DNA of 58,010 nt, counting the filler, from Barthelona sp. PAP020 (taxonomy: Eukaryota), in assembly GCA_040182905.1 (NCBI GenBank). It is 4 parts of 4 records of this genome, joined end to end, with 100 filler letters (N's around TTAATTAATTAA, not from the genome) between each part and the next. Parts side by side here need not be neighbours in the genome. Positions count along the whole stretch, not along the records: positions 26,945 to 46,897 come from JARQWU010000015.1; 3 more parts are not named here. One strand, written 5' to 3'. A program made the position numbers and the translations under genes. This document shows positions 7,181 to 46,997 of this stretch, in pieces. Numbering within the stretch: position 1 is the stretch's first letter; every line of letters begins with the position of its first letter. Below the pieces are notes generated by a model that was given only the letters and a program-made list of their open reading frames with translations, was not told the DNA's origin and ran no database searches.

Positions 7181-7861
7181 CTACCGTACTGTTTTCAGTT
7201 TTTTTGTTCTCTTATTAGAACTTGCTTTTTTATTATTGTCTTTCTTACTACTATTGTTAACCAATCGTGAAATTCCATTCTCAAAATTATAATTGATCCC
7301 ACTGGCTTCTATTAAATCTTGACGTTTTCTTTCTCTTTCAATCATTTTTTGAACTCTTTTCTTTCTTTCTGTTTGTGTTCTTTGTCTGTTATGAACTTCG
7401 CTATATTTTTGATTGTGATTTGCTGGATTATAAATATGATTGTTGTTGATAAACATAGAAGGATGAACATCTTTAGGATCCACCAATCTGCATTGTAATA
7501 AACGTCTGTGAATAAAATAACCATCCATTGTTTCTTGAACAATGGCTGCAACTTCAGGATGATCAAATTCAACAAAAGCATAATGTTTAGATCTACCAGT
7601 TTGCTTGTTTCTTGAAACCCTAACATTTTTGACATGACCGAATTGTTCAAAATATTCCTTTAATTGCAATTCAAAAAAACCATGAGGCAAATGCCCAATG
7701 TAAACAACTGTAGGACCTTTAACTTCATTGTTAATGGTCTTGTGTTCTTTTGGAATTGGTAATTCTTTGGTGTCAAGTTCAATATCGGAAACAATTGATT
7801 CATCTGAGAAAGATTCATTGTCAGAAAACATTTCAGCATCTGATAACTCAGAACCACTCAT
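7181..7861 (-). CDS. NIFK: Nucleolar RRM protein, Nop15/NIFK family, copy 2
   Basis: The RRM is near-identical to copy 1. The start is set at ATG 7861 (MSGSELSD) by homology to copy 1. Confidence 0.92.
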   Translation of the reverse strand: MSGSELSDAEMFSDNESFSDESIVSDIELDTKELPIPKEHKTINNEVKGPTVVYIGHLPHGFFELQLKEYFEQFGHVKNVRVSRNKQTGRSKHYAFVEFDHPEVAAIVQETMDGYFIHRRLLQCRLVDPKDVHPSMFINNNHIYNPANHNQKYSEVHNRQRTQTERKKRVQKMIERERKRQDLIEASGINYNFENGISRLVNNSSKKDNNKKASSNKRTKKLKTVR

Positions 7862-7931
7862 CAGTTTAATAATAATAAAAAGAAAGGAAAAGAAAAAACC
7901 AAATTTTTCTTTTGTTCTTTTAAACAAATAT

Positions 7932-8567
7932 ATGCAAAATAACTCTTCTGAAACAGCAAATCAATTAAAATTGGTTGTAGTTGGTGATGGTGCGGTATGA
8001 AAGTTGTAATATATATGAAAACTAACAGCGTAGGTAGGAAAAACATGTCTTCTCCACATGTATGCCAACAATCAATTCCCAGAAAGATATGATGCTACAA
8101 TTTTTGATAATTATGTTACAAAAGTTGAAGTTGATGGAGTTATCTATCGTTTAAGATTGTGGGATACTGCAGGACAAGAAACATTGGACAGATTAAGAGT
8201 TTTGTCTTATAAGAATGCTCATGTTGTTCTTATTTGTTTTGATACTAATTCTAGAGATAGTTATGAAAATGTTGCAACCAGATGGGCCCTTGAAGTTAGG
8301 CACAATTGTCCAGATGCTCCTATAATTCTTGTTGGAACTAAAATTGATTTGAGAACTGATCAAAATCTTGTAATTTCAATGGCTGAAGGTAATGAAAAGG
8401 CAAAGGAAATTGGAGCTTTAACTTATGTTGAATGTTCAGCTTTAAAATGCATTGGTGTAAAGAATGTTTTTGATGAAGCTATTGCTGCTGCTATTAATTT
8501 CACCACTGAAGGTACAAAGGAAGTTTCTGAAGTCCAACGTGATGAAGGATTATGTAGTTTCTTGTAA
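7932..8567 (+). CDS. Rho-family small GTPase, copy 2 (intron 7995-8033)
   Basis: Same motifs as copy 1; ends CSFL. The 39-nt intron GTATGA...ACTAACAGCGTAG is at the identical position. Confidence 0.95.
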
Positions 8568-8671
8568 TTTATATTTACTTTGACTTTTATGAATTTTTAA
8601 TGATGTTTAAATATATGTTATTGGAATTAAATTTGTAAATTCTTTTCAATTTTATTTTTTATTATTTTTTA

Positions 8672-9856
8672 ATGGAAACGATTGAAGTTGAATCTTTGAA
8701 AAGCACAAAAGTTGAATTAAAAAGCAAGTTAGATGAATCAGATGTGTTCTTGAAGTATGGTATTTATGCAAAGGAGAAAATTCCTCTTGATACCTCCATA
8801 TTGAGGGATACTTTCTTTTCAAAAATTCTTAAAAGTGGGTCTATTGACTTCTTTTGTGCACATTGTTTAAAAGGTAGAGCTGAAGAACAATTTTCACCAG
8901 ACGATTTTGAACACACGGGAGATAGATGTTCAGATTGTGGAATCACTTGTTTGAGTGAATTTATGAAATATCATGAAGAAGAATGTGAGTTACGTAAGTT
9001 GATTATTGATAAAATGGATGAAATTGAATATGATGTTGAATTAGCCAGAATGATATCTAAATTATTGATTAAACAAGTACTTCAAGACCCTGGATTGGAG
9101 ACTTTTGAGTTATTGCCTTGGGATTATCGTTCTAAATTATCACCACAAACCATTGAAATGTATGAGGTTACTGTAAATGGAATGATTGCTTTGGGGACTT
9201 TTTTGCCTGATGGTCATAGATTTAAGCCATTTTTGAACACAGAGAATTTATGGAAACTACTATTGCGAATTAATCGTTATTCTGATAACCTTTGGGATTT
9301 AAATTTTACAAATCCCAATACAGCTGTTGCATTTATGAATTTACGAGGTTTAGTTCGTCATTCTTGTTATCCTAACTGTGAATGGATTCAGCTCAATAGC
9401 GAAGAATATTGTTTGAGACCTATTAGAGAAATTCAAGCAGGAGAAGAAATAACTTTATGTTTGATTCCACATATGTTGGCAAAATTTCAAAGAATTCAGT
9501 TGCTCCAAACACATATGAATTTGGATTCTTGTAGCTGTTGTCGTTGCAGTGATTTAGAGTGGATGAACCGAGATCGTGAACTTTCTGGCATTAAATGTCA
9601 AGCAGTTGGTTGCGGCGGAGTGTTCTATTTCGATAATGGTAATGTCTTGTGCAATAAATGTGGCAACACTGCATCTGTTGAATATATTACTGATGTGGCA
9701 CATCACATTCATGAATTGTTGGACAAAGCTCAACGTCTTTCTCAATCTTCTGAGTTTATGCAAACTCAAGGTCATGCTGCTGCTATGGAGCTAAAGGATT
9801 ACTTGGATGAAAAAGTTCATTCCAGACACAAATTTCATCAGAATGTTGACGATTTG
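8672..9856 (+). CDS. SET and MYND domain (SMYD-like) protein, copy 2; 3' end lost at the contig linker
   Basis: GIYAKEKIP (SET-N), MYND cysteines, RHSCYPNC, RPIREIQAGEEITLC, post-SET CSCCRC, and a further C-x-C...CNKCG zinc motif. Confidence 0.88.
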
Positions 9857-9956
9857 NNNNNNNNNNNNNNNNNNNNNNNNNNNNNNNNNNNNNNNNNNNN
9901 TTAATTAATTAANNNNNNNNNNNNNNNNNNNNNNNNNNNNNNNNNNNNNNNNNNNN
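9857..9956. other. Artificial contig-join linker (N44-TTAATTAATTAA-N44)
   Basis: An identical 100-nt construct recurs at 26845-26944 and 46898-46997. The 12-mer gives stops in all six frames. Confidence 0.95.
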
Positions 9957-11093: not shown

Positions 11094-11243
11094 TTCAATA
11101 AATAGATCAATAAAGAACATAATTTTTATTTTATCTTGCACAATCTTGAATAAAAGAAAGAAAATTGAGATTCAAAATATTGAAAACCTTTATTCTCTTT
11201 TTTTTTAAACACGAAATTGTTTGTGTATGTGATATTCAGTTTC

Positions 11244-11295
11244 TTTTAGGATGAGTAACCACAGACCTGTTCTTAGGTCACTGACACCGGTGATT
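11244..11295 (+). ncRNA. Box C/D snoRNA, snR56/SNORD25-like (18S Gm guide); 3' end uncertain
   Basis: Box C AGGATGA 11248-54. CACAGACCTGTT 11260-71 is a 12-nt perfect complement of the conserved SSU sequence AACAGGUCUGUG. D'-like CTTA 11272-75; CTGA 11281-84. Confidence 0.75.
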
Positions 11296-11351
11296 TTTTT
11301 ATAATTTGATTATTCTTTGAATTTTCAAGAAAAAATTATTACCAACCGACC

Positions 11352-11392
11352 TGTGAGGATGAAACATTTCCACCACTCTTAGAAGCTGATTT
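11352..11392 (+). ncRNA. Second C/D motif pair (orphan snoRNA, or the 3' half of the preceding one)
   Basis: AGGATGA 11356-62 ... CTTA ... CTGA 11386-89, followed by a U-tract and then ACTAACATTGCAG. No target recognised. Confidence 0.45.
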
Positions 11393-11589
11393 TTTTCTAT
11401 TTTTTTTTCCAAAAATCGTGATTTTACTAACATTGCAGAAAAAAGAATTCCTTTTATCTACTCAGTATCTATATTTCAATCATAAATTCTTCTTTCATGG
11501 TTCCTTTTTGAATTTTTGGGGCAAAGTTTTGTTTTCTAAAAAAAATAAATTAATGTGAGGCTTTATCAAAAAACAGGATTTAAATTTTG

Positions 11590-12261
11590 TTATTCATCCT
11601 TACTTTTGTTTTCTAATGGTTCAGATTTGTTTGTTTCTTTCCTTTCTAAACGTTGCTTGAGATCATATTTGGTTAAACTTTCAAAAGCAGAGATAAGTTG
11701 AACCACATTAATAGATTGCTTTACAAACATAAAAGGTGCTGTAAAAATGCAAAGATAAGTGAAAATTTTGGCTTGAGTAATCGTTAAATATAAAAACAAA
11801 AAGAACAAATCATTGCATAAACACAAATATCCCAAAAATAATCTTGATTCGTAGTACAAACGAAGAATAAAATTCTTAGATTTGTCAAGTTTCTTGTGAG
11901 ATTCTTTACCTTCAAGCAAAGTAGCATACATATGTGCATAATGACTACAAATATCAAGTGCCACTTCAGTTTGGAAAAATATTGTATACTTAGGATAATA
12001 TGAAGCTAAACAAATTAACAAACAAGAAGTTCCAAAACGATCCGTGATCATATCCAAAACAGCTCCAAATCTGGTTGATTGATCGAATTTTCTTGCAAAA
12101 TAACCATCCAAAGCATCTAAACTGAAAGAACAAAAGTATAACAACCCAGACACAGCAGGTGATGTTTTTAAGGTAAAAAAGCAAGCAAAAGCAAGAATGA
12201 TTCTGGCAAAACCAATAATATTTGGTGCATAGAAGTAAATCTTTCTGTGAGATTCCATCAT
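11590..12261 (-). CDS. PIS1: Phosphatidylinositol synthase (CDP-diacylglycerol-inositol 3-phosphatidyltransferase)
   Basis: YAPNIIGFARI, the CDP-alcohol phosphotransferase motif DALDGYFARKFDQSTRFGAVLDMITDR, LDICSHYAHMY and SHKK. Confidence 0.95.
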   Translation of the reverse strand: MMESHRKIYFYAPNIIGFARIILAFACFFTLKTSPAVSGLLYFCSFSLDALDGYFARKFDQSTRFGAVLDMITDRFGTSCLLICLASYYPKYTIFFQTEVALDICSHYAHMYATLLEGKESHKKLDKSKNFILRLYYESRLFLGYLCLCNDLFFLFLYLTITQAKIFTYLCIFTAPFMFVKQSINVVQLISAFESLTKYDLKQRLERKETNKSEPLENKSKDE

Positions 12262-12672
12262 AAAACAAAAATGTTGGAAGAAAAATTGTTATCCAAAAGG
12301 TCTTCTGCTTTCATTTATTCATTGTGATTTCAAGCTTTTTTTTAATCAATGAATTAGCCAATCTTAATTGAAGAAATTGAATCGAATAATCTTCTCAATT
12401 TTCATATTTTCCTTTAATCCATATTTTCATAAATATATACACATATTTATATAATTGACAACAAATTTAATAACATTTGATTAATATTTTAAAACAAAAA
12501 GAAATTTCAACAGAATCACTCTTTTCTTCTCTTCTTGAAGTTATTGACACTTTAAACATTCGCGAAAGATTTAATTTGAAAACAATCTTTGAATAAACGT
12601 CAAAAGTGCAATTGAAGGAACTGTTCAACAACATTTTTAAATTTTATTCTACATTGCAAATGAATATGTACA

Positions 12673-14067
12673 ATGTCCAATGAATTGTTTGAATTATTAA
12701 AGAAACATCCCGATTATTTACTATTGAGACGAATGGTCAAAGATGCTGTGTTGAGTGAATATAGTTTTAAAGATTCATTAAACTTAAAATTAATGTTAAA
12801 CAAAGTATTTTCTCAAACTAACAATCAAGTTTTTTTGAAAAAACTGTTGTTATCACTTATTGTTGAAAACAAAAAAAAGAATGCACCGATTATTTGCAAT
12901 TCTGTTTATCAAAAACAAATAATTGAACAAGTGAATAATGGGTTAAACCATTTTTTTTTACAAATTGTTGAAAAATACAAAAAGAATGAACATTCCCCTT
13001 ATATATCTTTTAAAATATATTCCAAAGCATTAAAAACATTTTTATCTTTCAGTAAATCTGCTAATTCCAAAATTGAATTGTCAAAATTGAGTTTTCCCTT
13101 TCGTTTTCCATATAATGAGGTAAATTTAAATCAAAAGTATATCAAATTGAATTTTCAAACACCTAATCTTGGTGTTTCTGACTTCAAACTCAATAGCATA
13201 TGGAAAAATAATCTTTTATGTGTTTGTAAAAAGATTCTTTCATTCAAATCACCGGAATTAGCAAGAAGATTATGTATAAATGGAATACCTCCATCTTACC
13301 GATGCGGTATTTGGTCATTAATTTTGAATGTAGAGCCTTTAGAGGCCACAGACCCTTTTTTTTCAATTTATCAATCCATATGCAAACAATCTGATGAATC
13401 AGATTTGGAAAATCCTTATTTAATTGACAACTTTATTGCTAATTATACCCATGAATTCTTGAATGATCCAGTTTATTTTCCTTTTGTCGATTTAATTGGT
13501 GATTTATCGTTATGCATTATAAGGGACAGTAGGTTTTGTACCACAAAACCTACAATAAATGGGGAGTTTTTTCCACCAGGTGGAAATATTCCTACTTTTT
13601 CAATAGCATCTTTTGCAGGTTTACTTTGCTTTTTTGGCAAAACTGTTGAAGAGGTTTATCCTCTTGCAATTAAATTATTTCAAAATTATTTCAAATATTT
13701 ATTGGTTATTGATTTTGCTGAAGATCATTTTGTCGGCATTTGTTCAATTTTTGAAGGTTTGTTGAATTCAAAGGACCCTGAATTATTTTCTCACTTGATT
13801 AAATATGTTAATCCAAAAGACCTTATATTAGAATGGGTTTTAACAGGTTTTGTTGGCTATTTAGACCCCTCACAAGTATATCATTTGTGGGATCGTGTTC
13901 TTGGCTATGATTCTTTGGAGATTTTAGGGGTTGCTTGTGCTGCTATTCTAGTATTTAGAAGAGATGAATTGATTGATTGCGAAGATGATGATGAAATTGA
14001 TGGAGTTTTAGAAGACATTCATGAGATTAAGATAATTCCTGTGATTCAATGCTTAATTCACCTATAA
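12673..14067 (+). CDS. Rab-GAP TBC-domain protein (TBC1D19-like)
   Basis: GIPPSYRCGIWSLIL and FEGLLNSKDPELFSHL...WVLTGFVGYLDPSQVYHLWDRVLGYDSLEILGVACAAILVFR. Confidence 0.85.
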   Translation: MSNELFELLKKHPDYLLLRRMVKDAVLSEYSFKDSLNLKLMLNKVFSQTNNQVFLKKLLLSLIVENKKKNAPIICNSVYQKQIIEQVNNGLNHFFLQIVEKYKKNEHSPYISFKIYSKALKTFLSFSKSANSKIELSKLSFPFRFPYNEVNLNQKYIKLNFQTPNLGVSDFKLNSIWKNNLLCVCKKILSFKSPELARRLCINGIPPSYRCGIWSLILNVEPLEATDPFFSIYQSICKQSDESDLENPYLIDNFIANYTHEFLNDPVYFPFVDLIGDLSLCIIRDSRFCTTKPTINGEFFPPGGNIPTFSIASFAGLLCFFGKTVEEVYPLAIKLFQNYFKYLLVIDFAEDHFVGICSIFEGLLNSKDPELFSHLIKYVNPKDLILEWVLTGFVGYLDPSQVYHLWDRVLGYDSLEILGVACAAILVFRRDELIDCEDDDEIDGVLEDIHEIKIIPVIQCLIHL

Positions 14068-14937
14068 ATTAAAATATATTTTGATAAATAAACAATCAAA
14101 GGCATGTTTTGAAGTCTCATTGTCTCATTTGGTAATTCAGAATCAGAATCAGAATTACTATTTTTCAATGCATAAATAAAATACCTTTCTTCTTCTTGAA
14201 ACTAAAAATATTTTGAAATTTGCAATATTATGAATATGAGTTCACAAACGTAGTCTTTTTAAAATGATGATGACCAAAAGAGAAATTGAAATATGTGTTA
14301 AGGATCTAACAATTTTTAGAAGGAAAATGATGACAACTATTCAATTTATTTTGATGTTTGAAAAGATTAAATCTTATCTTTTCATGAGAAATGGAATATT
14401 CTATTCAAAACTATCCTTTTTGAATGAATCCTCCAGATTGTTTGAAATTTCTCATTTTATTCAGTTTCCTCATCATGATCACACCTTTAACAACAATAAA
14501 ATAATAAGTTCGTTTCTTTTTGAGAAGAAAGACTCCAAAAACAAGCAAAATCTCTTAATTCGTCTAGGAAACAGATTTTATTCTTTAAAAAGTCCTCATT
14601 TGTTAAATATAAAATCTTGGATTGTGAGGCCCTTCGTGAAGGCTAATATGATTGTTTGAACGATGATTCTGACCCATATAATCAATACTTTGATTCCCAT
14701 TCCATACGGTTAATTAAAATTCATTTTAATTGTTGGAACTGGAATGATCAAAAGATTTTCTGTCTTTTTAGAAATCTAACCCACCAAAAAAATAACACCC
14801 TAATTCAAAATTTTAATAAAAAATATTTAAAATGACCTTCAATTTATTGCTTAAATGTGTCAATGCATCATTTGAAAAAAAAAAAAAAAATGAAAATGTT
14901 CTTGTTTTTCTGGTAAATTTCATGTTGATGTTATTAT

Positions 14938-16539
14938 ATGAATGTATTACCTGTATTCTTTTTACTAATATTATTATTTAAGGGATGTTTATCTGTTGAT
15001 AGTAATTTATATGAATCCATACAAAACAATCTTAAAAATATTAATAATTATGATTTTACTCAGAGTTTTTTTGAATTTTATGATAATATAACAGATATTT
15101 TAGCTAATAGTGCCAAAATATATTATTTAGATGAAAATTATAATGAAAATTGTGAAATACTTTTTGGAATTGAAGAAAAATTTAACAATACTGCAAATTG
15201 TGTAACAGGCTTTTTCAATGAACAGCATTGCAATTGCAATGGTATGACTTTAAATGTTGAGCATCCAACATGTTTTTCTATATCTGGTAATTTATTGTCA
15301 AAAGAGTCGAGAAATTTAGCTTGCAAAATGAAACCTTTAATGAACATAGGAAAATCACTGTTGACTTATTCAAACGACATTTTTCTTGTAAATATGGCAA
15401 TACACACTGGATTTGCTTGGTTTTTTCCTGGTATTCCGCCTGATCTTTCAAATAATATTGGTTCGGAGAATGCCCCATGTTTTTATCGGACTGGTATAGC
15501 AGAATCTTATCCATTATTTCAGCGAAATTGGTACGCATCTGCTGCAATCAATCCCAGAACTATTGTATTCATTTTTAAATGTTCTGAATTGATGGGAAAT
15601 TTTCGAAATTTAATGGTGGAAATGATCAATCACATGATGATTTTTCTTTCTCCTCAAGACAGAATTTTTGTTATTTTTGAGGCAAAACAAACATATGTTC
15701 TATTTAATAAACCAGTAAATGTAGAAGAAGATGTTAAAAGTTTGATTGTTTCAACGATGAAAACAATTGAATTTTCAGGTCTAAATTTTGAAACTATGGG
15801 TTTAAATATTGCTGAAAGTGTATTTTCTAAAGCTGAAAATAAATTTATAAATTGTGCGTCCTTCATATACATATTTTCTGATGATTTGCCACCTAAATCC
15901 ACAGAATTTTCTTCATTTTTCATTGAAAATAATATTCGTATTATTGCATTCATTTTAACTGATATAGTTAATTTAGTGTTACATAAATGGACATGTTTAA
16001 CAAATGGATTGAGTTTTAATGTACCAACTATTGAACGTTTTGAAAAAAATTTTATAACTGTTCATCAGTTGGCTAAGATTTCTGGAGATGCATCGAAAAC
16101 ATACTGGACTTCACCATATTATTTTTGGAAATCTGATTTGTTGATTTCAACAGCTTCTAAATCAGTGTTTATTGATGAAAAAATGATAGGAGTTGTTGGA
16201 TTTGATATCATATGGGATGAGAACAAAGTGAAATTTGAAAATATTACAAATTATGTTCAAGAAAAAATATGCTTGGCAAACACGAACAGTTTTGCTGAAA
16301 TGGAAAGTTTACGTGAAAAATCTTGTGTTGCAGATGCTGTTTCAGTAGGTAGTGTTTTTTTTTCTGATAATCTAGATAAGAATTATTCAGTTGAATATTT
16401 TCTTTTCTTTTTGAGTTGCTTTTTCATCATTATTGTCATAAGTTTTGGTTTAAAAAAAATTGAACAATTAAATAATGTTCCAAATGTTGCTCATATCAAG
16501 TGTTATGAATTTAGAAAACAACAACATGAAAATGATTAG
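14938..16539 (+). CDS. Type I membrane protein with VWA + Cache-like domains (Ca-channel alpha2delta/CACHD1-like)
   Basis: Signal peptide, RNWYASAAINPRTIVFIF (cf. RPWY..A.SPKD.VIL.D), YWTSPYY, GVVGFDI and a C-terminal hydrophobic helix. Confidence 0.7.
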   Translation: MNVLPVFFLLILLFKGCLSVDSNLYESIQNNLKNINNYDFTQSFFEFYDNITDILANSAKIYYLDENYNENCEILFGIEEKFNNTANCVTGFFNEQHCNCNGMTLNVEHPTCFSISGNLLSKESRNLACKMKPLMNIGKSLLTYSNDIFLVNMAIHTGFAWFFPGIPPDLSNNIGSENAPCFYRTGIAESYPLFQRNWYASAAINPRTIVFIFKCSELMGNFRNLMVEMINHMMIFLSPQDRIFVIFEAKQTYVLFNKPVNVEEDVKSLIVSTMKTIEFSGLNFETMGLNIAESVFSKAENKFINCASFIYIFSDDLPPKSTEFSSFFIENNIRIIAFILTDIVNLVLHKWTCLTNGLSFNVPTIERFEKNFITVHQLAKISGDASKTYWTSPYYFWKSDLLISTASKSVFIDEKMIGVVGFDIIWDENKVKFENITNYVQEKICLANTNSFAEMESLREKSCVADAVSVGSVFFSDNLDKNYSVEYFLFFLSCFFIIIVISFGLKKIEQLNNVPNVAHIKCYEFRKQQHEND

Positions 16540-16736
16540 TTAATCTGATCTTTTTTTTTTTTTTTTGGCACACTTTTATCATCAATCAATGCTTGTATGA
16601 CAAAGAAATTTGAAATAAAAATAGTACAAATGAAGAAATTTTTTTTTAAAACTATTTTTTGCTTTTTATTTGATATTTTTATCAGGAAAAGAATTATTAG
16701 CAAAAAAGAATATTACAATTAATTTCTCTATTTTTC

Positions 16737-16967
16737 TTTGTTCGAAGCGCTTTCCAAACTTTCCAAACTTGAGAACTGGCCCCTCCGGTGATTTGTAAAT
16801 AATATACTCTTATCTTTATTCATATCTGAAGGTGATATTGGGGAGGGGGTGGGGGAACCTCTCAGGCTTAACTCTTTAATTTCAAATGCTGTCCCGTGGT
16901 AAGGGCGTCCTATGCAGTGTATTAAAGTTTTGCGGTACTAATTGTTCAGAAGACCCTTAAGTCTCCC
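16737..16967. repeat. Dispersed ~230-nt structured non-coding element, copy A
   Basis: A GC-richer intergenic island sharing collinear blocks with 33088-33313: TTTCCAAA(A)CTTTCC, AATAATA.AC, ATCTTTATTC, GGAACCTCTC, GCTGTC, CTATG and TACTAATTG.TCA.AAGA. Confidence 0.75.
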
Positions 16968-17413
16968 AAATTCTTAAAATTCATCCTAAATGTACAAAGT
17001 TTCTTGCGGTTCACTTGAAAAAGTTCAAAAATTTTGGGTAAAGTTTTGTATTCAAGGAACAATTGAAGAAAACAAAATTTCGATCTGGCAAAAATAATCC
17101 CTTACAAACAATTCTCAATTAATTTTTCTTATTTCTTTTATTTCAATCATCTTCATGTGTTAAACTTCTCATAATCTTTCTTATCTTTTTTTTTTTGTTC
17201 TTTTACTATCATTGAATTCAAAACAAAGAATTGTTTTTCACAATTGCTTCAGTTTATCTGAAAAGCTAACGTGGACATGCAAAATACATTAAATCAAAAC
17301 AAAAGACCAAGTATTTGTCAAAATAAAGAACTGAATATTTTTCAAAACACACATTTATCACATTAACAATATTTTTAAAATTCTTGAAGTTCAGATTGAA
17401 AAATACGGAAGAA

Positions 17414-26844: not shown

Positions 26845-26944
26845 NNNNNNNNNNNNNNNNNNNNNNNNNNNNNNNNNNNNNNNNNNNNTTAATTAATTAA
26901 NNNNNNNNNNNNNNNNNNNNNNNNNNNNNNNNNNNNNNNNNNNN
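26845..26944. other. Artificial contig-join linker
   Basis: N44-TTAATTAATTAA-N44. Confidence 0.95.
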
Positions 26945-30285: not shown

Positions 30286-31159
30286 TCATTTTTTCTGAAG
30301 AAATTCCTCCACTGTGTGTTGTTTTTTAAAATTAACACCTGCTGCACTTAATCTCTTCTTTAACGTAATGCGAGTAACACCAATAGCTTCTGCAATTTCA
30401 TCAATATTGCTACCATTACTTAACATTTCTTTAACTAACCCCCAGTCAATACCTTTCACAGGTCTTCCTCTACCGCGTGCTTGCAAAAGTTTTGGTGGCA
30501 TTTTAAGTGGCTCATCAATAGTATGTCGTACTTTTCTTTCAATAGGAAGGGAAACAGCAGAAGATGACGCGGTAAAACCATTAAAAATATCTTTTGAGTA
30601 AAAAAATAAATGTTTTAAATCTCTTTTGGTATCAGGTAAATATTGTGGGAGTCTAACATACAATTTTTGCAGTTTCGGTATCAAATCCAATTTAATTCCA
30701 AAACTAACTTGTGATCTATCGAATTCGTCAACAGAGAGAATAGTGTTAGCAACATTATTCAAATTGACTACAATATAATCATTGATATTATTGGTAAAAC
30801 AGCATTTAATCCCAAATTTTGTCGTAATTTCCACTTCATCTCCTCCAACATGAACTAAATACCGTTTGGGTAAATCAACAATGCCAAGAATTTTTGCAAC
30901 TTCAAATGAATTCTTCCAAAACAATTTAACATACAAACCCTTCACTAGTTGCCCAATATTATCAACGTATCTGAACGTTAAAAACATTTCTCGACTAATT
31001 ACGCACCATTTGGCTTCTTCAAATGACATTTCATGGATAGTATTTGCTTTCTAAAAATTAGTAAAGTTATCAATAGAACACTCAAACAATGTAGTTATTT
31101 GGTACAAAAATGTTTAAATTAGGAAGAAAAATACAATTTTCGGTGTGTTTCTCTTCCAT
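30286..31159 (-). CDS. Plus3-domain protein with C-terminal GRP + helix-turn-helix; intron 31051-31087
   Basis: ISRE.F......LVKGLYVKL...FEVAKILGI....KRYLV...NLNNVAN...DEF fits Plus3. The C-terminus is GRGRPVKGIDWGLVKEMLSNGSNIDEIAEAIGVTRITLKKRL. The upstream exon MEEKHT... joins in frame via a 37-nt GTTTGA...ACTAATTTTTAG intron. Confidence 0.72.
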
Positions 31160-34150: not shown

Positions 34151-34721
34151 TTCTTTTACTTTGGTGTTTAGTGCAATTCTTTATTGTTGCTAATAATTTT
34201 TGGTTTCAAATTTTGAATAAAATACCATCTGGATTTTTTTATTAAAATGTCTTTTTCCTTTTGTTAAAAAAAAAAAGAAAAGAAATTGCAACTTTATAAA
34301 ACATACTACATATTTCCAGACATTCATCAAGTTTGAGCACTCAAGATGGCAATTCAAAATTCAAATAAATAAATAAATAAAACAATTGACGACATTTTGA
34401 ATTCAAATTCAAATTGTTAAATTGTTGATGATGAAAATTCGTGTCATACCTTTATTAAACAAATTGCATGTTTTAAATTTATTCACATAAATAAATGCAT
34501 GTTGATATTTGCTGAAAAGATTAAAAAAATGAAAAAAATGAAAAAACTGTTAGCTGAGAAAACGTTTCTCCAAATTTAAACTTGAAACGGTGGTACTGGT
34601 GACCAATATAAAAGAAACAGAATCATTGCTATTTGAATTTCGCATTACATACCTTAGCATTCATAAAACAAAATTTCGCAATCAAAAATTGTGGATTTTG
34701 AGAGACAAAAGTTTAATGAAA

Positions 34722-36322: not shown

Positions 36323-38485
36323 ATGAATGAATTAGATTTAAAAAAAAGAAAAGACGAAGTCGAAAAATCTTCTTTGAAGTTTGTAACACATCGTTTGAAT
36401 CGAATAAATGAGAATTTTTCATTTGCAATTTTATGGATTATTTATATATTACAATTTGTGAGTTTAACTTTCAAATTTTACAGATCTTGGAGAATTCCTT
36501 ACATTTTTGTCAATGTTTCAAGGTTTTTTTCATTTTTCTTTTTCGATTTAACTATATTATTATCTCCTTTATCAAGTAACAGTACTTTTTTAGTTTTTTA
36601 TACTGTTCAATGTTTCATCATTGGATTAATCAATTTATGGTTAGAAATAGTACATCAGCATTCATTAAAATTGAAGCCATATTCTTTTAGTCATAAAATA
36701 ATTCCTTTAATACTTGAAATATCGACTGTATCTCATTTTTATCAATTTTTTTCCCTTTTGTCACATTTTTCGTTTCAAAATATTACATTATTCAATGTGA
36801 TTGTGTTGTTTGTGCAAATTTGTTTGTTATTTGTTTCAATATTTCATCTTTTTCGAGGGTTTTTGTATTCAGTCAGAGGACCTATTTTTTCAATAGAAGT
36901 TGATCACGAAGCGTATTTGATTAGTGTTGAGCTCGGATTTGCATGCTTTTTAGATCAAACTTATGGTTCTCGTGGTGTGGCATGGTTTCAACATTATAAG
37001 TTTAAAAATCATAATTTTCGAATCTTTTTAATAGCTATTAGAATCTTTTCTATTGGCACATGTTTTTGCAGCAGTTATTTTTCTAGTTTTCCAGACTACA
37101 TTGGACCACTTATCATTTTTTTGATGAATGTTCTTGTTTTTTGTTATTTGTTGGTTTCAAGACCATACAGAAGCAATGATTTGATGACTATTTCGTGCGT
37201 TTCTCTTTTTGGCATGTCTTTAATGTATTTTTTCTTCATTCAATGTGCTGTAGGCTATTCTTCATTATTTTTAATTGCTCCCATTTTTTTTGGCTTAAAT
37301 ATCATTATTGTCATCACAACTATGGTTGGTATTGTATTAGTTTGTATTTATGTTACAATCCCATATTTGTCTAACACAGGAACACCTGTAAAACAATCGT
37401 TGTTTGAGAGACCTGATATTTTATTCAAAATACATGATATTGCATCTGAAACAAAAATTATTAGGGAACAAATTGATTTCTCTCCTGAAATTGTTGATTT
37501 AAAGAGGATGAAATCCAATTTAGATTCTTTGTTGGCTTTGTTACATGAAGTCGTCATTGCACAATCACCTTTATTGTTATCCGTTCGGTCCTTTTACTTT
37601 GAGCAATTTAGTTTGTATTTGTACATTCTCAACAATAATATTTTGAATGCTGATCCTAACATTTTAAAACCTGTGAGAGGAATTTTTGGGTTATTTTCTC
37701 AAAGAAAAAGAAAACTATTGGACAAAGTTTTGTTTATTGATCATCTTGTCAAGGATTTGAGTTCAGTTGAATCATATCAATCACGCAATGATATTGCAGA
37801 GATCACCACCATTAATCAATCTGTTAGAGGACATGAAACAAATATTCAACAATTGAATGGCGTTTCAGAAAATGTGGAGAGTGATGACATCATGAATGAA
37901 GTTATTGATCAAGGAAAAGATTTTGATTTTGATATCAACTCTAATTTGGGCATGTTTGAGGAAGATGAAGAAGATGAAATTATCAGAGAAAAAAATAAGT
38001 TGTTTGGTTGTATTGATTATAACATCAGCGTTTTCCCTCGTAGTGTTGTTCCCAACATTATCAATCAAAGAATTATTTCATCTCCTTTCAATGTGCCATT
38101 CAACCCTTCAATGTTATCAGAAGCTGTTGGTGATGCTATTCTTATTTCCCAATTGTCATTTGACAAGTCTTTATTTGACCAATTAAATAAGTTTAACGAA
38201 GAATTTGAAGAAGTTGACAGTGGTATGAATTCTCCTTTGCGTCACATGAGTATAAACGGATTAGAACATTGTGATGATAATCAAAATGATGATGATGATC
38301 AATGGATGATTGAATATGTGTCTGCGAACAGTGAATCTTTAGATTCAGACAGTGATAGTGATGGTGATTCTGTGGTTGGTAGTTCCAGTTTAGTTTCATC
38401 ATTGGACAGAAAAAATTCTTCCAATAGACCCTCTTTTATTCCTTCATTGAAATTAAATGATATTGATAGTGAAGATGATGAGTAA
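36323..38485 (+). CDS. Multipass membrane protein with acidic cytoplasmic tail
   Basis: About 8-10 hydrophobic segments, an RPY motif after a TM pair and a D/E/S-rich C-terminus. No family recognised. Confidence 0.75.
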   Translation: MNELDLKKRKDEVEKSSLKFVTHRLNRINENFSFAILWIIYILQFVSLTFKFYRSWRIPYIFVNVSRFFSFFFFDLTILLSPLSSNSTFLVFYTVQCFIIGLINLWLEIVHQHSLKLKPYSFSHKIIPLILEISTVSHFYQFFSLLSHFSFQNITLFNVIVLFVQICLLFVSIFHLFRGFLYSVRGPIFSIEVDHEAYLISVELGFACFLDQTYGSRGVAWFQHYKFKNHNFRIFLIAIRIFSIGTCFCSSYFSSFPDYIGPLIIFLMNVLVFCYLLVSRPYRSNDLMTISCVSLFGMSLMYFFFIQCAVGYSSLFLIAPIFFGLNIIIVITTMVGIVLVCIYVTIPYLSNTGTPVKQSLFERPDILFKIHDIASETKIIREQIDFSPEIVDLKRMKSNLDSLLALLHEVVIAQSPLLLSVRSFYFEQFSLYLYILNNNILNADPNILKPVRGIFGLFSQRKRKLLDKVLFIDHLVKDLSSVESYQSRNDIAEITTINQSVRGHETNIQQLNGVSENVESDDIMNEVIDQGKDFDFDINSNLGMFEEDEEDEIIREKNKLFGCIDYNISVFPRSVVPNIINQRIISSPFNVPFNPSMLSEAVGDAILISQLSFDKSLFDQLNKFNEEFEEVDSGMNSPLRHMSINGLEHCDDNQNDDDDQWMIEYVSANSESLDSDSDSDGDSVVGSSSLVSSLDRKNSSNRPSFIPSLKLNDIDSEDDE

Positions 38486-42718: not shown

Positions 42719-44890
42719 TTAAATATCATCCAATAAATCTTCTTCATTTTCACTTTCATTATCTTCATTTTCTTGAATACTATCTTGGACAGTTAATGAT
42801 TCTAATTTCATGCGTATTGAAGAAATGAATGATTCAGACAAATCACTATCATTTGTTGGTAACAAACTGACATTTCCATCCAACAAGGTGTTCCATAATG
42901 AAGGGGACTTTTCCAAAGATGTGTTCATCAATTTTGAATAGACAACATTGAATAACTCAACATTTGAAAACCTTAGACAGTACTTTTGTAAAGCCTTTAT
43001 CAAAGAAAATATGGCATCTTTTTGAAATGTAATTGGTTCTGAACAAAAAAGCTCAATTCGATTTGCAAATTGAGATAAGATAACATGATGCTGTTCTGGG
43101 GCTGTTTCTAACAGTACTTCAACGGATGGAAGAAGGTTTATGATGGTAAATGGCAAATTAATTTCAATTTTCTTTTCTTCGACTTCCACTTCATCAATTT
43201 CATCCATTTTTTTACGATAAAAAGCGGATTTGCTGTCTTCTTCAACAGCTTTCATTTCAATAGGATACAATTTTTTCAATTGAAGCATCAATTGATTCAC
43301 TCTCTCGTTGTTTTCCAATTCAATGAAACGCTCCCCCAACAATATTTTTTCGATCTCCATCTTTTTGATTGCATAATTCTCATCTCTCAGCTTGTTTTCT
43401 AAGTTGGAATATTTGTGAGCAAAAATTATGTCTGTAATATTTGCAACCGAAAAATCAGTTTCAATTTTTCCACTTACCATTGTTTCTTCAATTAGATTCT
43501 CAAAAATGGAAGTTCCTTCATTGAATTCCAAGTTTATTTTTTTTTGTTCATCATCGCTACAACTCATACAACGTTCATTTCTTGTTGCTTGATTTGCAGT
43601 TGAATTATATTTATCATTTGACAATAGTGGAACTAAGGGAAGGAAATTTGTCAATCTTATATCTTCGGCAAATGCCAAATGACTTGTTCTAAAATATATG
43701 ACATTATTTTCAACAACAGGTTCAAATAAACACAATTCAGGAGAACTATTCCGAGTTGAAAGCTGGCGTATTATCATCACATTACCACTTTGAATCAAAC
43801 TTTGAGCCAAATGAACAAAGCGACTTACATTCACTTCATCCGTTGTAGGCAAAGCTATTCGAGGTTTACCAATTTTCCAAGAATGATGAACAGCAATTTT
43901 AGGTGTGAAACCAATTAATCTCATTCCTTTCATGGCAATTGGGTCATTGTAACTCAAAAGTTGTCTTGAAATATCGTTTATTTCAACAACACCATCACCA
44001 TAAGCAAAATAATCAACATTGCTTATTTCTTCTTCATCAACTTCAGCAATTTCATCATCATGGTAGTATTTCTGTACTCTTTTAATGGATTCATCTTTAT
44101 TTTTCAAAGATATAATTTTAAATGAAGGTATCAGAGTTTTATCAATCAAAGAATAAGATTCAATCTCAATGGAATAATCAAAACCAAAGTCAATAGTAAA
44201 TTTTGTAGGAAAAGGAAAAGATATAAAATAATTTTCAACAACAGATGATATATTGTTGGTTATTAAATTGGAAAATCTGCAACATTTGCAAAAATCACGA
44301 ATTATTATTTGTGTTGTTATTTGGTCACGTAGAATGGGTTTGATGTCCCCATCATATTCATGCCCATCTTCTAATCCTGTTAACATATAATCATAACAAA
44401 AACAAGTGAATTCAATCCCAAAACTGTTGATATCTTCACAAAATTCTGATATATTAGATATCCTTTCATTCGATGGGTATGATCCATCTGTAATTAAACA
44501 TATTCTTTTACTTTTTTTGCCGCTTCCACAATAATCTATCAACAAATCACTAGCTGCAGTTATAGCATCCAAAATATTTCCATTAACTGTTCCTTCTGTT
44601 AATTTATCATATTTTAAAAAAGCTTCAACATCAATGACGTCAATTCCCTGAAAAAGAAAAATATGTGCTCCAAGTTTGTATAATCCTAACTCTTCACCAA
44701 TTTCATCACTAACACCACATACAATTATTCCAACTAAATTCGATTTTTTTGATGAATAGAAGTAATTGCGATATATTTTTAAAATGGAATCTTTTACATC
44801 CTTAAATCGATTCTTTTCGCATGTTGATTTGTTAAAATCGGCAATTAGTACTGTTACAACACTTCGATATACAGGCCAGCGTTCTTTCAT
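42719..44890 (-). CDS. KU80: Ku80 (XRCC5) DNA end-binding subunit
   Basis: vWA N-terminus (VGIIVCG, ILDAITAA.D.L, KRICLITDG), Ku core (FAYG, MRLIGF, LAFAEDIR..F.PL), a C-terminal helical domain and terminal EEDLLDDI. Confidence 0.85.
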   Translation of the reverse strand: MKERWPVYRSVVTVLIADFNKSTCEKNRFKDVKDSILKIYRNYFYSSKKSNLVGIIVCGVSDEIGEELGLYKLGAHIFLFQGIDVIDVEAFLKYDKLTEGTVNGNILDAITAASDLLIDYCGSGKKSKRICLITDGSYPSNERISNISEFCEDINSFGIEFTCFCYDYMLTGLEDGHEYDGDIKPILRDQITTQIIIRDFCKCCRFSNLITNNISSVVENYFISFPFPTKFTIDFGFDYSIEIESYSLIDKTLIPSFKIISLKNKDESIKRVQKYYHDDEIAEVDEEEISNVDYFAYGDGVVEINDISRQLLSYNDPIAMKGMRLIGFTPKIAVHHSWKIGKPRIALPTTDEVNVSRFVHLAQSLIQSGNVMIIRQLSTRNSSPELCLFEPVVENNVIYFRTSHLAFAEDIRLTNFLPLVPLLSNDKYNSTANQATRNERCMSCSDDEQKKINLEFNEGTSIFENLIEETMVSGKIETDFSVANITDIIFAHKYSNLENKLRDENYAIKKMEIEKILLGERFIELENNERVNQLMLQLKKLYPIEMKAVEEDSKSAFYRKKMDEIDEVEVEEKKIEINLPFTIINLLPSVEVLLETAPEQHHVILSQFANRIELFCSEPITFQKDAIFSLIKALQKYCLRFSNVELFNVVYSKLMNTSLEKSPSLWNTLLDGNVSLLPTNDSDLSESFISSIRMKLESLTVQDSIQENEDNESENEEDLLDDI

Positions 44891-45323
44891 TGAAAAAAAT
44901 AGTTTTTCATTTTCCTCTTTTTTTAATGAATTTCCTTTTTTTTATTATTGAATCTTTGGAAATGTTGTGGGTCAATAGACAGATAAACAAATAAATAAAT
45001 CTTTATTAATTCTCTTTTTTTTGTTCTTTTGAAAGAAAATTTAAGCAATTAAAATAATTTTCTGCTACAATTTCCAAAAATTATGTTGTTAAGAAGAATA
45101 ATGATCTTCAGAAATATTTATTCCTTTCTTGGTCGGATTTATCAACAATAATTCATAAAATTTGTTCTTCAAATAATAATAATAAACAAATTGAATATAA
45201 ATAAACTGCGAATCAGTATCAAATTGAAGTTTCTTTGGAAATTATCCCCAAAAAAGAATTTTGATATTTTTTTTTTTGTTTTTTTTTTGTTCAAAAAATT
45301 GTATGTATTCTTGTGTTCTTCAT

Positions 45324-45386
45324 TTTTATGATGAATTTATGTCATAGTTATCAGATTTTTAATGATGACAACAACATAACTGATTT
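45324..45386 (+). ncRNA. Box C/D snoRNA 1 (LSU helix 69 guide)
   Basis: C ATGATGA 45328-34; guide GTCATAGTTA 45341-50, complementary to LSU UAACUAUGAC; D' CAGA; C' ATGATGA; D CTGA 45380-83. Confidence 0.85.
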
Positions 45387-45452
45387 TTTGAAATTTTCCT
45401 TTAATTGCCAAATTCTAACCTATTGTCAAGAAAGTTTTTATTTTGATCATTT

Positions 45453-45523
45453 TTGTATGATGAAAACAAGTCATAGTTTCTGAATTGTTCTTTGGAACAT
45501 GAAGACAATTTTTTTTCTGATAT
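45453..45523 (+). ncRNA. Box C/D snoRNA 2 (LSU helix 69 guide)
   Basis: C ATGATGA 45457-63; guide AGTCATAGTT 45469-78; D' CTGA; internal hairpin TGTTC/GAACA; C' ATGAAGA; D CTGA 45517-20. Confidence 0.87.
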
Positions 45524-45622
45524 TTTTTTTTAATTTTTTGTGAAAGTTTTCTAATTTTTCAGTTTTTTTCGTTTTTGTTTTTTTTATACATTTTTTTTTG
45601 AAAGGTTTGTACATGTGTCTTT

Positions 45623-45682
45623 ATCAATGAGGAAACTTATCCTACGTTATCTGTTTTATGATGATGAAAAGATTGCTGATTC
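45623..45682 (+). ncRNA. Box C/D snoRNA 3 (probable LSU guide)
   Basis: C-like ATGAGGA 45627-33; ACTTATCCTAC, complementary to the conserved LSU GUAG(G/A)AUAAGU; C' ATGATGA; D CTGA 45676-79. Confidence 0.7.
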
Positions 45683-45745
45683 TTTTTTTTTAATTTTTTA
45701 AACAGTTTTCTAATATTTAGTATGTTGCGAAAATCTATAATTTTG

Positions 45746-45817
45746 GAAGCTGTGATGGTGACTAGAGTCTCTTAGGAAAACTGTGATTAGAACTGCTGTT
45801 TAGCCCCACTGAGCTTC
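45746..45817 (+). ncRNA. Box C/D snoRNA 4, snR78/SNORD52-like (LSU Um guide)
   Basis: Terminal stem GAAGC/GCTTC; C GTGATGG; guide ACTAGAGTC, complementary to LSU GACUCUAGU; D' CTTA; C' GTGATTA; D CTGA 45809-12. The +5 rule lands on the U equivalent to yeast Um2421. Confidence 0.85.
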
Positions 45818-46043
45818 ATTTTTTAATCAATACATTTTAAAAACTCTAACAAATAGGAAGTATTTATTCAGTAGATAATTCTTTTATTGACAAAGAATTT
45901 CATTCAATCATAACTTTTCAATTTTGATAAACTTTCACGTTGAAATATATCGTTTTCAATTTTCTTTTTAATCTTTTTGTTTGTTTTTGTTGATTTGAAA
46001 ATAATAAAGCAAAAAAGAAAAATGCTAAAAAGTTTACATCAAA

Positions 46044-46775
46044 TTAACAACTGCACGTGTCATTGGAAGAAATTGGATCAGACACATTTATAGGTATTTT
46101 ATCATTTAAATCTTCATTTGAACGTAAATCTTCAACCACATTGTCAATTAATTTAATGGTCAGCTCTTGGAAAGCTTCTTCAACATTTGTATTGGCTTTT
46201 GCTGATGTTTCAATGAACATCATATCTTGCGTAATCGCATATTGTTCAGCTTCAGCCATTGTTACTTGTCTTTCGGATTCATCTAAATCAGTTTTATTAC
46301 CAACCAAAATAAGAACAACTTCAGGTCTGGCAATCTTTCTAACACTTTCAACAAGCTCTTGAATCTTTTCAAAAGATTCATGAGAAGAAACATCATAAAC
46401 TAATAACAATCCATGTGCACCACGATAATAATTTGTAACAACTGCAGAAAATCTAACTTGACCAGCCGTATCCCATATTTGTAATTTAACATTTTTGCCT
46501 TTACATGTAATATTTCTAATTTTCTAGGGTCAGTATAAATACAATAAAAAAAAACATACAAAATCAACACCAATTGTTGAAACACATCTATCAGACCACT
46601 GATTTTTCTATAAATTAGTAAAATAACAAATTAATCAAACATACAGTAAATCTCCTGAATAGACATGATTTTCCAACACTAGTTTCTCCCAATAGAACAA
46701 TTTTAAAAATATAGTCACTATATATTAGAACAAATACTTTAAAATAATGTACAATTCTCCTTGTTCAATACTCAT
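46044..46775 (-). CDS. Rab-family GTPase (Rab1-like, divergent); introns 46718-46752, 46608-46644, 46524-46559
   Basis: Spliced: FDYIFKIVLLGETSVGKSC...STIGVDFKIR...KLQIWDTAGQVRF...YYRGAHG...GNKTDL...ETSAK...CSC. Removing three GT-AG introns of 35, 37 and 36 nt restores the frame. Confidence 0.95.
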
Positions 46776-46897: not shown

Positions 46898-46997
46898 NNN
46901 NNNNNNNNNNNNNNNNNNNNNNNNNNNNNNNNNNNNNNNNNTTAATTAATTAANNNNNNNNNNNNNNNNNNNNNNNNNNNNNNNNNNNNNNNNNNNN
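46898..46997. other. Artificial contig-join linker
   Basis: N44-TTAATTAATTAA-N44. Confidence 0.95.

Follow-up and report, generated by a model that had tools for sequence, protein, structure and literature searches.

How does an intron-poor protist produce its small nucleolar RNAs (snoRNAs), and could splicing be the route? The question is raised by a 1.1-kb stretch without long ORFs, flanked by a Ku-family gene and a Rab gene, in DNA of Barthelona sp. PAP020. The source organism is a barthelonid metamonad, and barthelonids together with skoliomonads form the sister group of Fornicata (PMC11316075). Metamonad snoRNA biology has so far been that of intron-stripped parasites, whose snoRNAs are described as non-intronic (PMC3228867, PMC11427974): Giardia snoRNAs are intergenic (PMC11427974, PMC3510501), and intronic snoRNAs in Giardia and Trichomonas have been called ‘highly unlikely’ (PMC3228867). 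An earlier note read the Barthelona locus as a non-coding host gene that carries its snoRNAs in introns. Sequence support for this reading is good, as the splice signals exceed chance expectation and a second locus repeats the layout, and all the motif coordinates that the note gave are confirmed.

The window, that is the whole stretch of 58,010 nt that was analysed, is AT-rich, eukaryotic DNA in which genes are densely packed and few have introns. The best matches of a CK2-alpha protein agree with a barthelonid origin: an EukProt transcript protein that carries a Barthelona label (87%) and a Barthelona protein (65%). Both neighbours of the locus are on the minus strand, the Ku-family gene divergent from and the Rab gene convergent with the predicted plus-strand host unit. 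Gene order is uncertain across three joins (9857-9956, 26845-26944 and 46898-46997; 100 bases each, a 12-base linker with stops in all frames flanked on either side by 44 N), and neither snoRNA locus contains one. The window also holds an inverted 1.85-kb duplication (1-1846 against 7222-9052, 91% identity) with paralogous Rho-type GTPase genes and their neighbours.

Four C/D-box units span 45328-45812 on the plus strand (Table 1) and measure 56, 64, 53 and 61 nt from box C to box D. Each has C and D boxes at its ends and C' and D' boxes inside, the arrangement of a methylation-guide snoRNA. Box D is CTGA in all four, D' reads CAGA, CTGA, CTGT and CTTA in sno1 to sno4, and box C is canonical in sno1 and sno2 and a one-base variant in sno3 and sno4. 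A clear terminal stem is present in sno4 only, and single-strand folding is not better than in shuffles (z of -1.47, 0.83, -1.62 and 0.28 for sno1 to sno4). At the gathering threshold Rfam returns no snoRNA match at the locus, which leaves the four units below the scores of curated families. Below that threshold, the guide and C' box of sno4 align in register with Rfam snR78 (18.2 bits against a gathering score of 48, E 0.7), and the sno3 guide aligns with snoR27 (16.5 bits, gathering 41); a search for an Rfam family carrying the sno1 guide found none. In the Neurospora table snR78, snoR37 and U52 are listed as equivalents (PMC2780460). A further C...D pair in the window, at 34428-34515, was rejected as a snoRNA, having no guide adjoining a box and no branch motif past D.

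Table 1. Positions of the snoRNAs, predicted introns and exons and neighbouring genes, counted along the window
Feature	Positions	Strand	Remarks
Ku70/Ku80-family gene, upstream neighbour	42719..44890	-	Pfam PF02735 E 4.8e-17; ATG 44890
sno1, C/D snoRNA	45328..45383	+	C ATGATGA, D' CAGA 45352, C' 45362, D CTGA 45380
sno2, C/D snoRNA	45457..45520	+	D' CTGA 45480; likely sno1 paralogue
sno3, C/D snoRNA	45627..45679	+	C ATGAGGA, D' CTGT 45651, D 45676
sno4, snR78/U52/snoR37-type C/D snoRNA	45752..45812	+	C GTGATGG, D' CTTA 45771, D 45809, terminal stem
Predicted intron A	45301..45430	+	130 nt; GTATGT consensus, branch CTAAC (A45418), atypical AAG
Possible 3-nt exon AAA	45431..45433	+	flanked by the two weakest sites, an AAG acceptor and a GTTTTT donor
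Predicted intron B	45434..45562	+	129 nt; weak GTTTTT, branch CTAAT (A45554), CAG
Predicted U-rich exon	45563..45604	+	42 nt; ends in G45604
Predicted intron C	45605..45720	+	116 nt; AAG/GTTTGT, branch CTAAT (A45713), TAG (G = 45720)
Alternative sno3 donor GTACAT	45609	+	competes with GTTTGT
Shared G	45720	+	last base of the intron C AG and first base of the intron D GTATGT
Predicted intron D	45720..45856	+	137 nt; GTATGT, branch CTAAC (A45849), TAG, then G45857
Rab-type GTPase gene, downstream neighbour	46044..46775	-	three 35-37-nt introns
Second predicted snoRNA intron	11225..11438	+	214 nt; GTATGT, C-like AGGATGA 11248, D' CTTA 11272, D CTGA 11386, CTAAC (A11430), CAG

What would these RNAs guide? 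A methylation guide is recognised by a 10-21-nt rRNA complement directly before D or D'. Here complementary stretches lie next to D', as judged on the rRNA of other eukaryotes. Seven rRNA loci were found in metagenomes by the pattern of three window guides at ribosomal spacing; one stretch, in locus L016, is confirmed as eukaryotic LSU rRNA (E 2.8e-155), and the six others were judged by common flanking sequence. The presence of guide matches in 7/7 of these loci is partly circular, because the loci were picked with three of the guides, and the Rfam LSU consensus therefore serves as the independent evidence of complementarity. It contains exact complements of the sno1, sno2 and sno4 guides (9-10 nt adjoining D') and a complement of the sno3 guide with one mismatch, in the stretches GUAACUAUGAC (sno1 and sno2), UUGACUCUAGu (sno4) and gAUAACgCaGg (sno3). 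The sno1 guide has a 10-bp complement both in this consensus and in 7/7 metagenome loci. Among 27,600 other non-coding 9-mers, complementarity to every one of the six longer rRNA loci is limited to 36. Guides next to box D fare differently: those of sno2, sno3 and sno4 have no conserved target in the rRNA loci, and that of sno1 has a 10-11-nt match in three of the seven. A two-guide pattern also matched nine loci in viral contigs; none of them had an Rfam match, and they were taken as chance matches.

The target base of a box C/D guide is set by the fifth-base rule. On this rule the D' guide of sno1 is predicted to target the C that ends GUAAC, before UAUGAC, at position 2263 of the Rfam LSU model, and that of sno2 the next base, the U at position 2264, in a loop that we take to be helix 69. 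The snR63/U46 site, located through the 165-nt offset that separates it from the snR78 site in the Neurospora table, is followed directly by these two bases, and the guides predict measurable modifications at neighbouring helix 69 bases. The guide core GTCATAGTT is common to both snoRNAs, which resemble a duplicated pair, with guides offset by one base onto adjacent bases of the loop. Likeness extends to the sno2 and sno3 spacers, where it exceeds that of shuffles (0/1,000). The sno3 guide CCTACGTTAT(CT) pairs with LSU AUAACG(C/U)AGG, and its target base is uncertain, C2653 or A2649 of the model depending on which D' is used. For sno4, the predicted target is the U that ends GACU, before CUAGU, at model position 2427.

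Are these snoRNAs intronic? The standard of comparison is a set of 10 coding introns, each of which, once removed, restores or extends a conserved protein frame. A pair of paralogous Rho introns is included, and two of the 10 are confirmed by spliced window proteins identical to transcript-derived proteins over 551/551 and 343/343 residues. All ten fall within the 35-39 nt that the earlier note had given for coding introns, all begin with GTA, and they carry a CTRAY branch motif and end in YAG 6-10 nt past the branch A. Two intron candidates lie outside this set. One, at 31051-31087 on the minus strand, has a GTTTGA donor and would be a coding intron with a GTT donor; relatives of the protein at 30289-31050 were sought to test it, and none was found. 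The other, at 37344-37379 on the plus strand, is in frame and stop-free within a long ORF.

Around each of the four snoRNAs lie a candidate donor and a branch and acceptor of the organism's own type. A GT precedes box C by 27, 23, 22 and 32 (or 28) nt in sno1 to sno4, a CTAAY stands 31, 30, 30 and 33 nt past box D, and an AG ends 12 (AAG), 8 (CAG), 7 (TAG) and 7 (TAG) nt past the branch A. The distance to the 3' splice site is reported to be important for intronic snoRNAs (PMC2780460), and the near-constant spacing between box D and branch fits this report. CTAAY has four copies on the plus strand within 45200-46050, all of them after the four D boxes. The repeated donor-box C...box D-branch-AG layout described in the earlier note is thus upheld in its spacings, and it is difficult to obtain by chance: dinucleotide shuffles of the four spacers, searched in a 20-50-nt window, reach three or four branch-plus-AG units in 0/20,000 cases and two units in 32, a result whose P value is overstated because the units are partly duplicates. 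The branch-plus-AG motif by itself has 22 copies in the 13,075 nt of non-coding DNA, counting both strands, and a pattern for the whole architecture, tuned on these units, matches four times on both strands of the window, always at this locus.

How closely do these signals resemble those of coding introns? The match that the note had claimed for branch and acceptor holds for three of the four acceptors (YAG, 6-10 nt past the branch A) but not for the AAG of sno1, at 12 nt. Three of the note's donors begin with GTT, a start seen in 0/10 coding donors. Donors are consensus-like for three of the four units and weak for sno2. Scored with a coarse matrix built from the ten coding donors, which themselves range from -0.4 to 4.2 when left out one at a time, GTATGT (45301 and 45720), the commonest coding donor in the reference set, reaches 3.9, GTATTT (45860) 1.6, GTTTGT (45605) -1.0, GTTTTT (45434) -3.3 and GTTGCG (45724) -13.8. 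Matches to the U1-pairing consensus number 6 of 11 for GTTTTT, 4 for GTTGCG and 3-7 for coding donors. The pattern GTAYRT, chosen after the data were seen and fitting 3/10 coding donors, has three copies on the plus strand in 45250-45950, each 18-32 nt upstream of a box C, against a background of 0.00046 per nt.

Could the splice-like motifs be relics? An unspliced polycistron might be cut by endonucleases, as in S. cerevisiae after splicing loss, or by way of a 12-nt motif as in Giardia, where snoRNAs come from intergenic mono- and dicistrons cleaved at that motif (PMC3510501). Several donors do depart from the coding consensus, as relics might, but branch and acceptor motifs are intact in 4/4 units and at the second locus, and we find this account very unlikely. 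The Giardia-type motif has no exact copy in either snoRNA locus, which places neither in that type, and its occurrence in the window (25 against 20.9 expected, with four one-mismatch copies at the main locus) is at chance level. Four separate polymerase III genes, each terminated by a T-run past box D, have only the slightest chance of being the answer: a T-run does lie within a few bases of every box D, but there is also a T5 inside sno1 and a T8 inside sno2, internal runs of the kind that would stop polymerase III early, and the branch and AG motifs would go unexplained. On these signals, a spliced host transcript is highly probable.

If the transcript is spliced, how would the last two introns be separated? 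As drawn in Table 1, introns C and D overlap by one G, and this one-base AG/GT overlap is the only one after a branch motif in the window. The base before the donor of intron C is G45604 and the base after the acceptor of intron D is G45857; both outer neighbours are G, and therefore removal of either intron would rebuild the splice site of the other. By one route 45605-45720 would be cut first, and G45604 and TATGT would rebuild the GTATGT donor of the sno4 intron; by the other 45720-45856 would be cut first, and TA and G45857 would rebuild the acceptor of the sno3 intron, CTAATATTTAG. The junction has the sequence of a [D1,2]/[A2,3] arrangement (G45604/GT...TA-G45720-TATGT...AG/G45857), and the predicted product, GAAA-G-AAGTATT at this junction, is identical by both routes. 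Use of the alternative sno3 donor GTACAT would block the first route and leave the second as the one that works. At the edges of coding exons, G is found before 4/10 donors and after 5/10 acceptors; G being so common there, the flanking Gs alone are a weak sign, and the weight lies on the overlapped consensus donor. Given splicing, the shared-G step is quite probable.

A map in which introns C and D do not overlap is distinctly unlikely. In one form, GTTGCG opens the sno4 intron and leaves the exon TAT, so that the product would read GAAAG-TAT-GAAGTATT; in the other, one G was lost in assembly and the introns abut (AG/GT), to be removed by recursive splicing. Exons of 3, 1 and 0 nt are known from fungal clusters (PMC3596301, PMC5033589), and GTTGCG, 28 nt before box C, is inside the range of the other donors. 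However, its score and its 4/11 matches to the U1 consensus compare badly with the commonest coding donor, GTATGT, which stands 4 nt upstream, and both of the flanking Gs that nested splicing requires exist, which speaks against a TAT or a zero-length exon alike. A one-base assembly loss at 45720, with TAG/GTATGT read as TAGTATGT, may have occurred. The micro-exon map of the earlier note accordingly survives in part: the exon AAA and the 42-nt exon are possible, whereas TAT needs the poorly scoring GTTGCG, and GAA needs a fifth intron that finds no support. This ‘empty’ 36-nt intron, at 45860-45895 on the plus strand, has a consensus donor (GTATTT) but TTGAC instead of a CTRAY branch, 2 nt to the AG and an AAG end. 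We do not favour a [D4,5]-type reading either (GTAT+AA at sno1/sno2, GTTT+TA at sno3/sno4), as a tandem GT at +5 is inherent in GTATGT.

The weak point of the overlapping map is the sno1/sno2 boundary, where an AAG acceptor at 12 nt meets a GTTTTT donor scoring -3.3. That the weakest sites coincide with this boundary would suit a host that is spliced but lacks one intron per snoRNA: the donor at 45301 would pair with any downstream acceptor, or sno1 and sno2 would share a 262-nt intron (45301-45562), and multi-snoRNA lariats would then be separated by nucleases. In fungal clusters, stepwise splicing and the use of one donor with several acceptors are indistinguishable according to Luo et al. 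(PMC3596301), and exon skipping gives minor products in Candida (PMC5033589). But sno1 retains a CTAAC at 31 nt from box D and consensus-like donors precede sno3 and sno4, all of which a single-donor model would leave idle; we consider such a host unlikely. In 5/5 candidate spliced products the longest ATG-started frame has 22-26 codons, which bears out the claim that the implied exons encode nothing.

We regard as fairly probable a spliced non-coding host with one snoRNA per intron whose last two introns overlap by one G. One polymerase II transcript would start in the divergent promoter region next to the Ku-family gene and be spliced four times, introns C and D being removed in succession. 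After debranching, each lariat would be trimmed as far as the proteins protect the snoRNA, and what remains of the transcript, the ligated exons, would be discarded. Debranching and trimming of lariats are established for intronic snoRNAs. For this locus we infer the whole course from the motifs: transcription as one unit, splicing, debranching, trimming and 2'-O-methylation of the targets.

Close counterparts of this arrangement are found in fungi, where snoRNAs are known to come from non-coding hosts whose exons are small, of zero length or negative (PMC3596301, PMC5033589). Candida-group cluster II (snR57-snR55-snR61) undergoes nested (exon size -1) and recursive splicing, as RNA-seq in three species shows (Donovan et al. 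2016, PMC5033589). Like the Barthelona locus as predicted, it is a polycistronic non-coding unit where every intron bears a single C/D snoRNA, one G is shared by two introns and flanking Gs rebuild donor or acceptor, giving two routes to one product. Unlike cluster II, the Barthelona unit carries two helix-69 guides, a snoR27-like and an snR78-like snoRNA, belongs to a different supergroup, and has shorter snoRNAs (53-64 nt from C to D) and weaker donors; and nested splicing, shown by RNA-seq in Candida, is here predicted from DNA alone. The alternatively spliced [D1,2]/[A2,3] stwintron of Trichoderma reesei (Fekete et al. 2017, PMC5587772) also has a one-G overlap of alternatively excised introns that disrupts the donor or acceptor of the outer intron, but it lies within a protein-coding gene, whereas the Barthelona introns bear snoRNAs in a non-coding unit. 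UHG/gas5-type host genes and snoRNA clusters I-V of Neurospora crassa (Liu et al. 2009, PMC2780460) are a further comparison. The predicted Barthelona host resembles UHG/gas5 and the Neurospora hosts in being spliced, without a meaningful frame, with one C/D snoRNA per intron and an snR78/U52-type guide aboard, and differs in that its array takes 556 nt and its internal exons 3, 42 and -1 nt. Its cluster partners differ from those of fungal cluster I, and no shared gene order is shown. In Ostreococcus, intronic snoRNAs have protein-coding hosts (PMC7671301). With Giardia and Trichomonas the locus shares short C/D guides, an intergenic spacer and a compact, intron-poor genome; unlike in those parasites, each Barthelona snoRNA has its own splice signals, and there is no exact 12-nt motif. 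Judged by its sequence, the locus is likely a known kind of gene, the fungal-type spliced snoRNA host, in a distant lineage.

Does this extend beyond one locus? We give even chances to the wider claim that in this metamonad C/D snoRNAs are made genome-wide from dedicated spliced hosts, among them hosts whose introns overlap by a single G and have to be removed in order. If true, it would have no precedent outside fungi and animals in the literature searched, which consisted mostly of open-access main texts and yielded neither an intronic snoRNA host in a metamonad nor, beyond fungi, any nested snoRNA introns; the word ‘snoRNA’ is absent from the main text of the barthelonid genome paper (PMC11316075). 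Either the architecture would be ancestral to metamonads and opisthokonts and lost towards Giardia, or intron-poor genomes would have arrived at it independently, the shared G included. A study of 44 genomes reports that the intronic position of snoRNAs does not hold steady as far back as the last eukaryotic ancestor (PMC3511168), which favours convergence. A free-living relative with snoRNA introns would provide a starting state for a change to the motif-cleavage system of Giardia, a change that would have its counterpart in budding yeasts, where splicing around snoRNAs was lost (PMC3596301, PMC5033589). Delivery of snoRNAs could be one reason why intron-poor genomes retain a spliceosome, and the shared-G junction offers a sharp and cheap test, in a lineage distant from fungi, of whether splicing is ordered.

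A search for longer introns gave 10 candidates, of which two belong to the main locus and one further candidate, the second predicted intron of Table 1, contains a guide-bearing snoRNA. Its GTATGT lies 23 nt before the C-like AGGATGA, its CTAAC 37 nt past box D and its CAG 8 nt past the branch A. The D' guide is of the snR56/U25 type, directed at SSU rRNA, with a 12-bp complement in locus L014, which was not selected with this guide, and keeps the same register as Rfam snR56. It is unrelated to the four guides of the main locus, and the D' variant CTTA is common to this unit and sno4. The unit is probably one 142-nt C/D RNA with a long internal hairpin, the D' guide and a second guide, CCACCACTCTTAGAAG, for which the rRNA loci examined hold no match; two very short RNAs are an alternative reading. 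About 130 nt separate the unit from the stop of the preceding plus-strand gene; its intron may lie in a 3' UTR or belong to a separate host. A relaxed scan of the non-coding DNA places 6/6 guide-plus-box matches within the two snoRNA loci, and all five guide-bearing snoRNAs found in the window lie between splice signals.

Two further observations concern sequences near or resembling these units. The 11-nt sequence TTCAATCATAA occurs on the plus strand at 11475-11485 and 45903-45913, in each case downstream of the last acceptor of a snoRNA locus, and TCAATCATAA is found at the two snoRNA loci and nowhere else in the window. Sharing of an 11-nt sequence also arises in 52/5,000 shuffles and in 20/465 pairs of gene 3' flanks, a weak significance, and TTCAATCATAA could be a 3'-end signal common to both loci. 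Within an 880-nt spacer, the GC-richer stretch 16740-16990 is possibly a structured RNA; Rfam over 11150-17050 returns nothing relevant for it or for 11225-11438. Its minus strand carries AGGATGA followed by a 10-nt complement, overlapping a CTGA, to an LSU site that is conserved in 7/7 loci.
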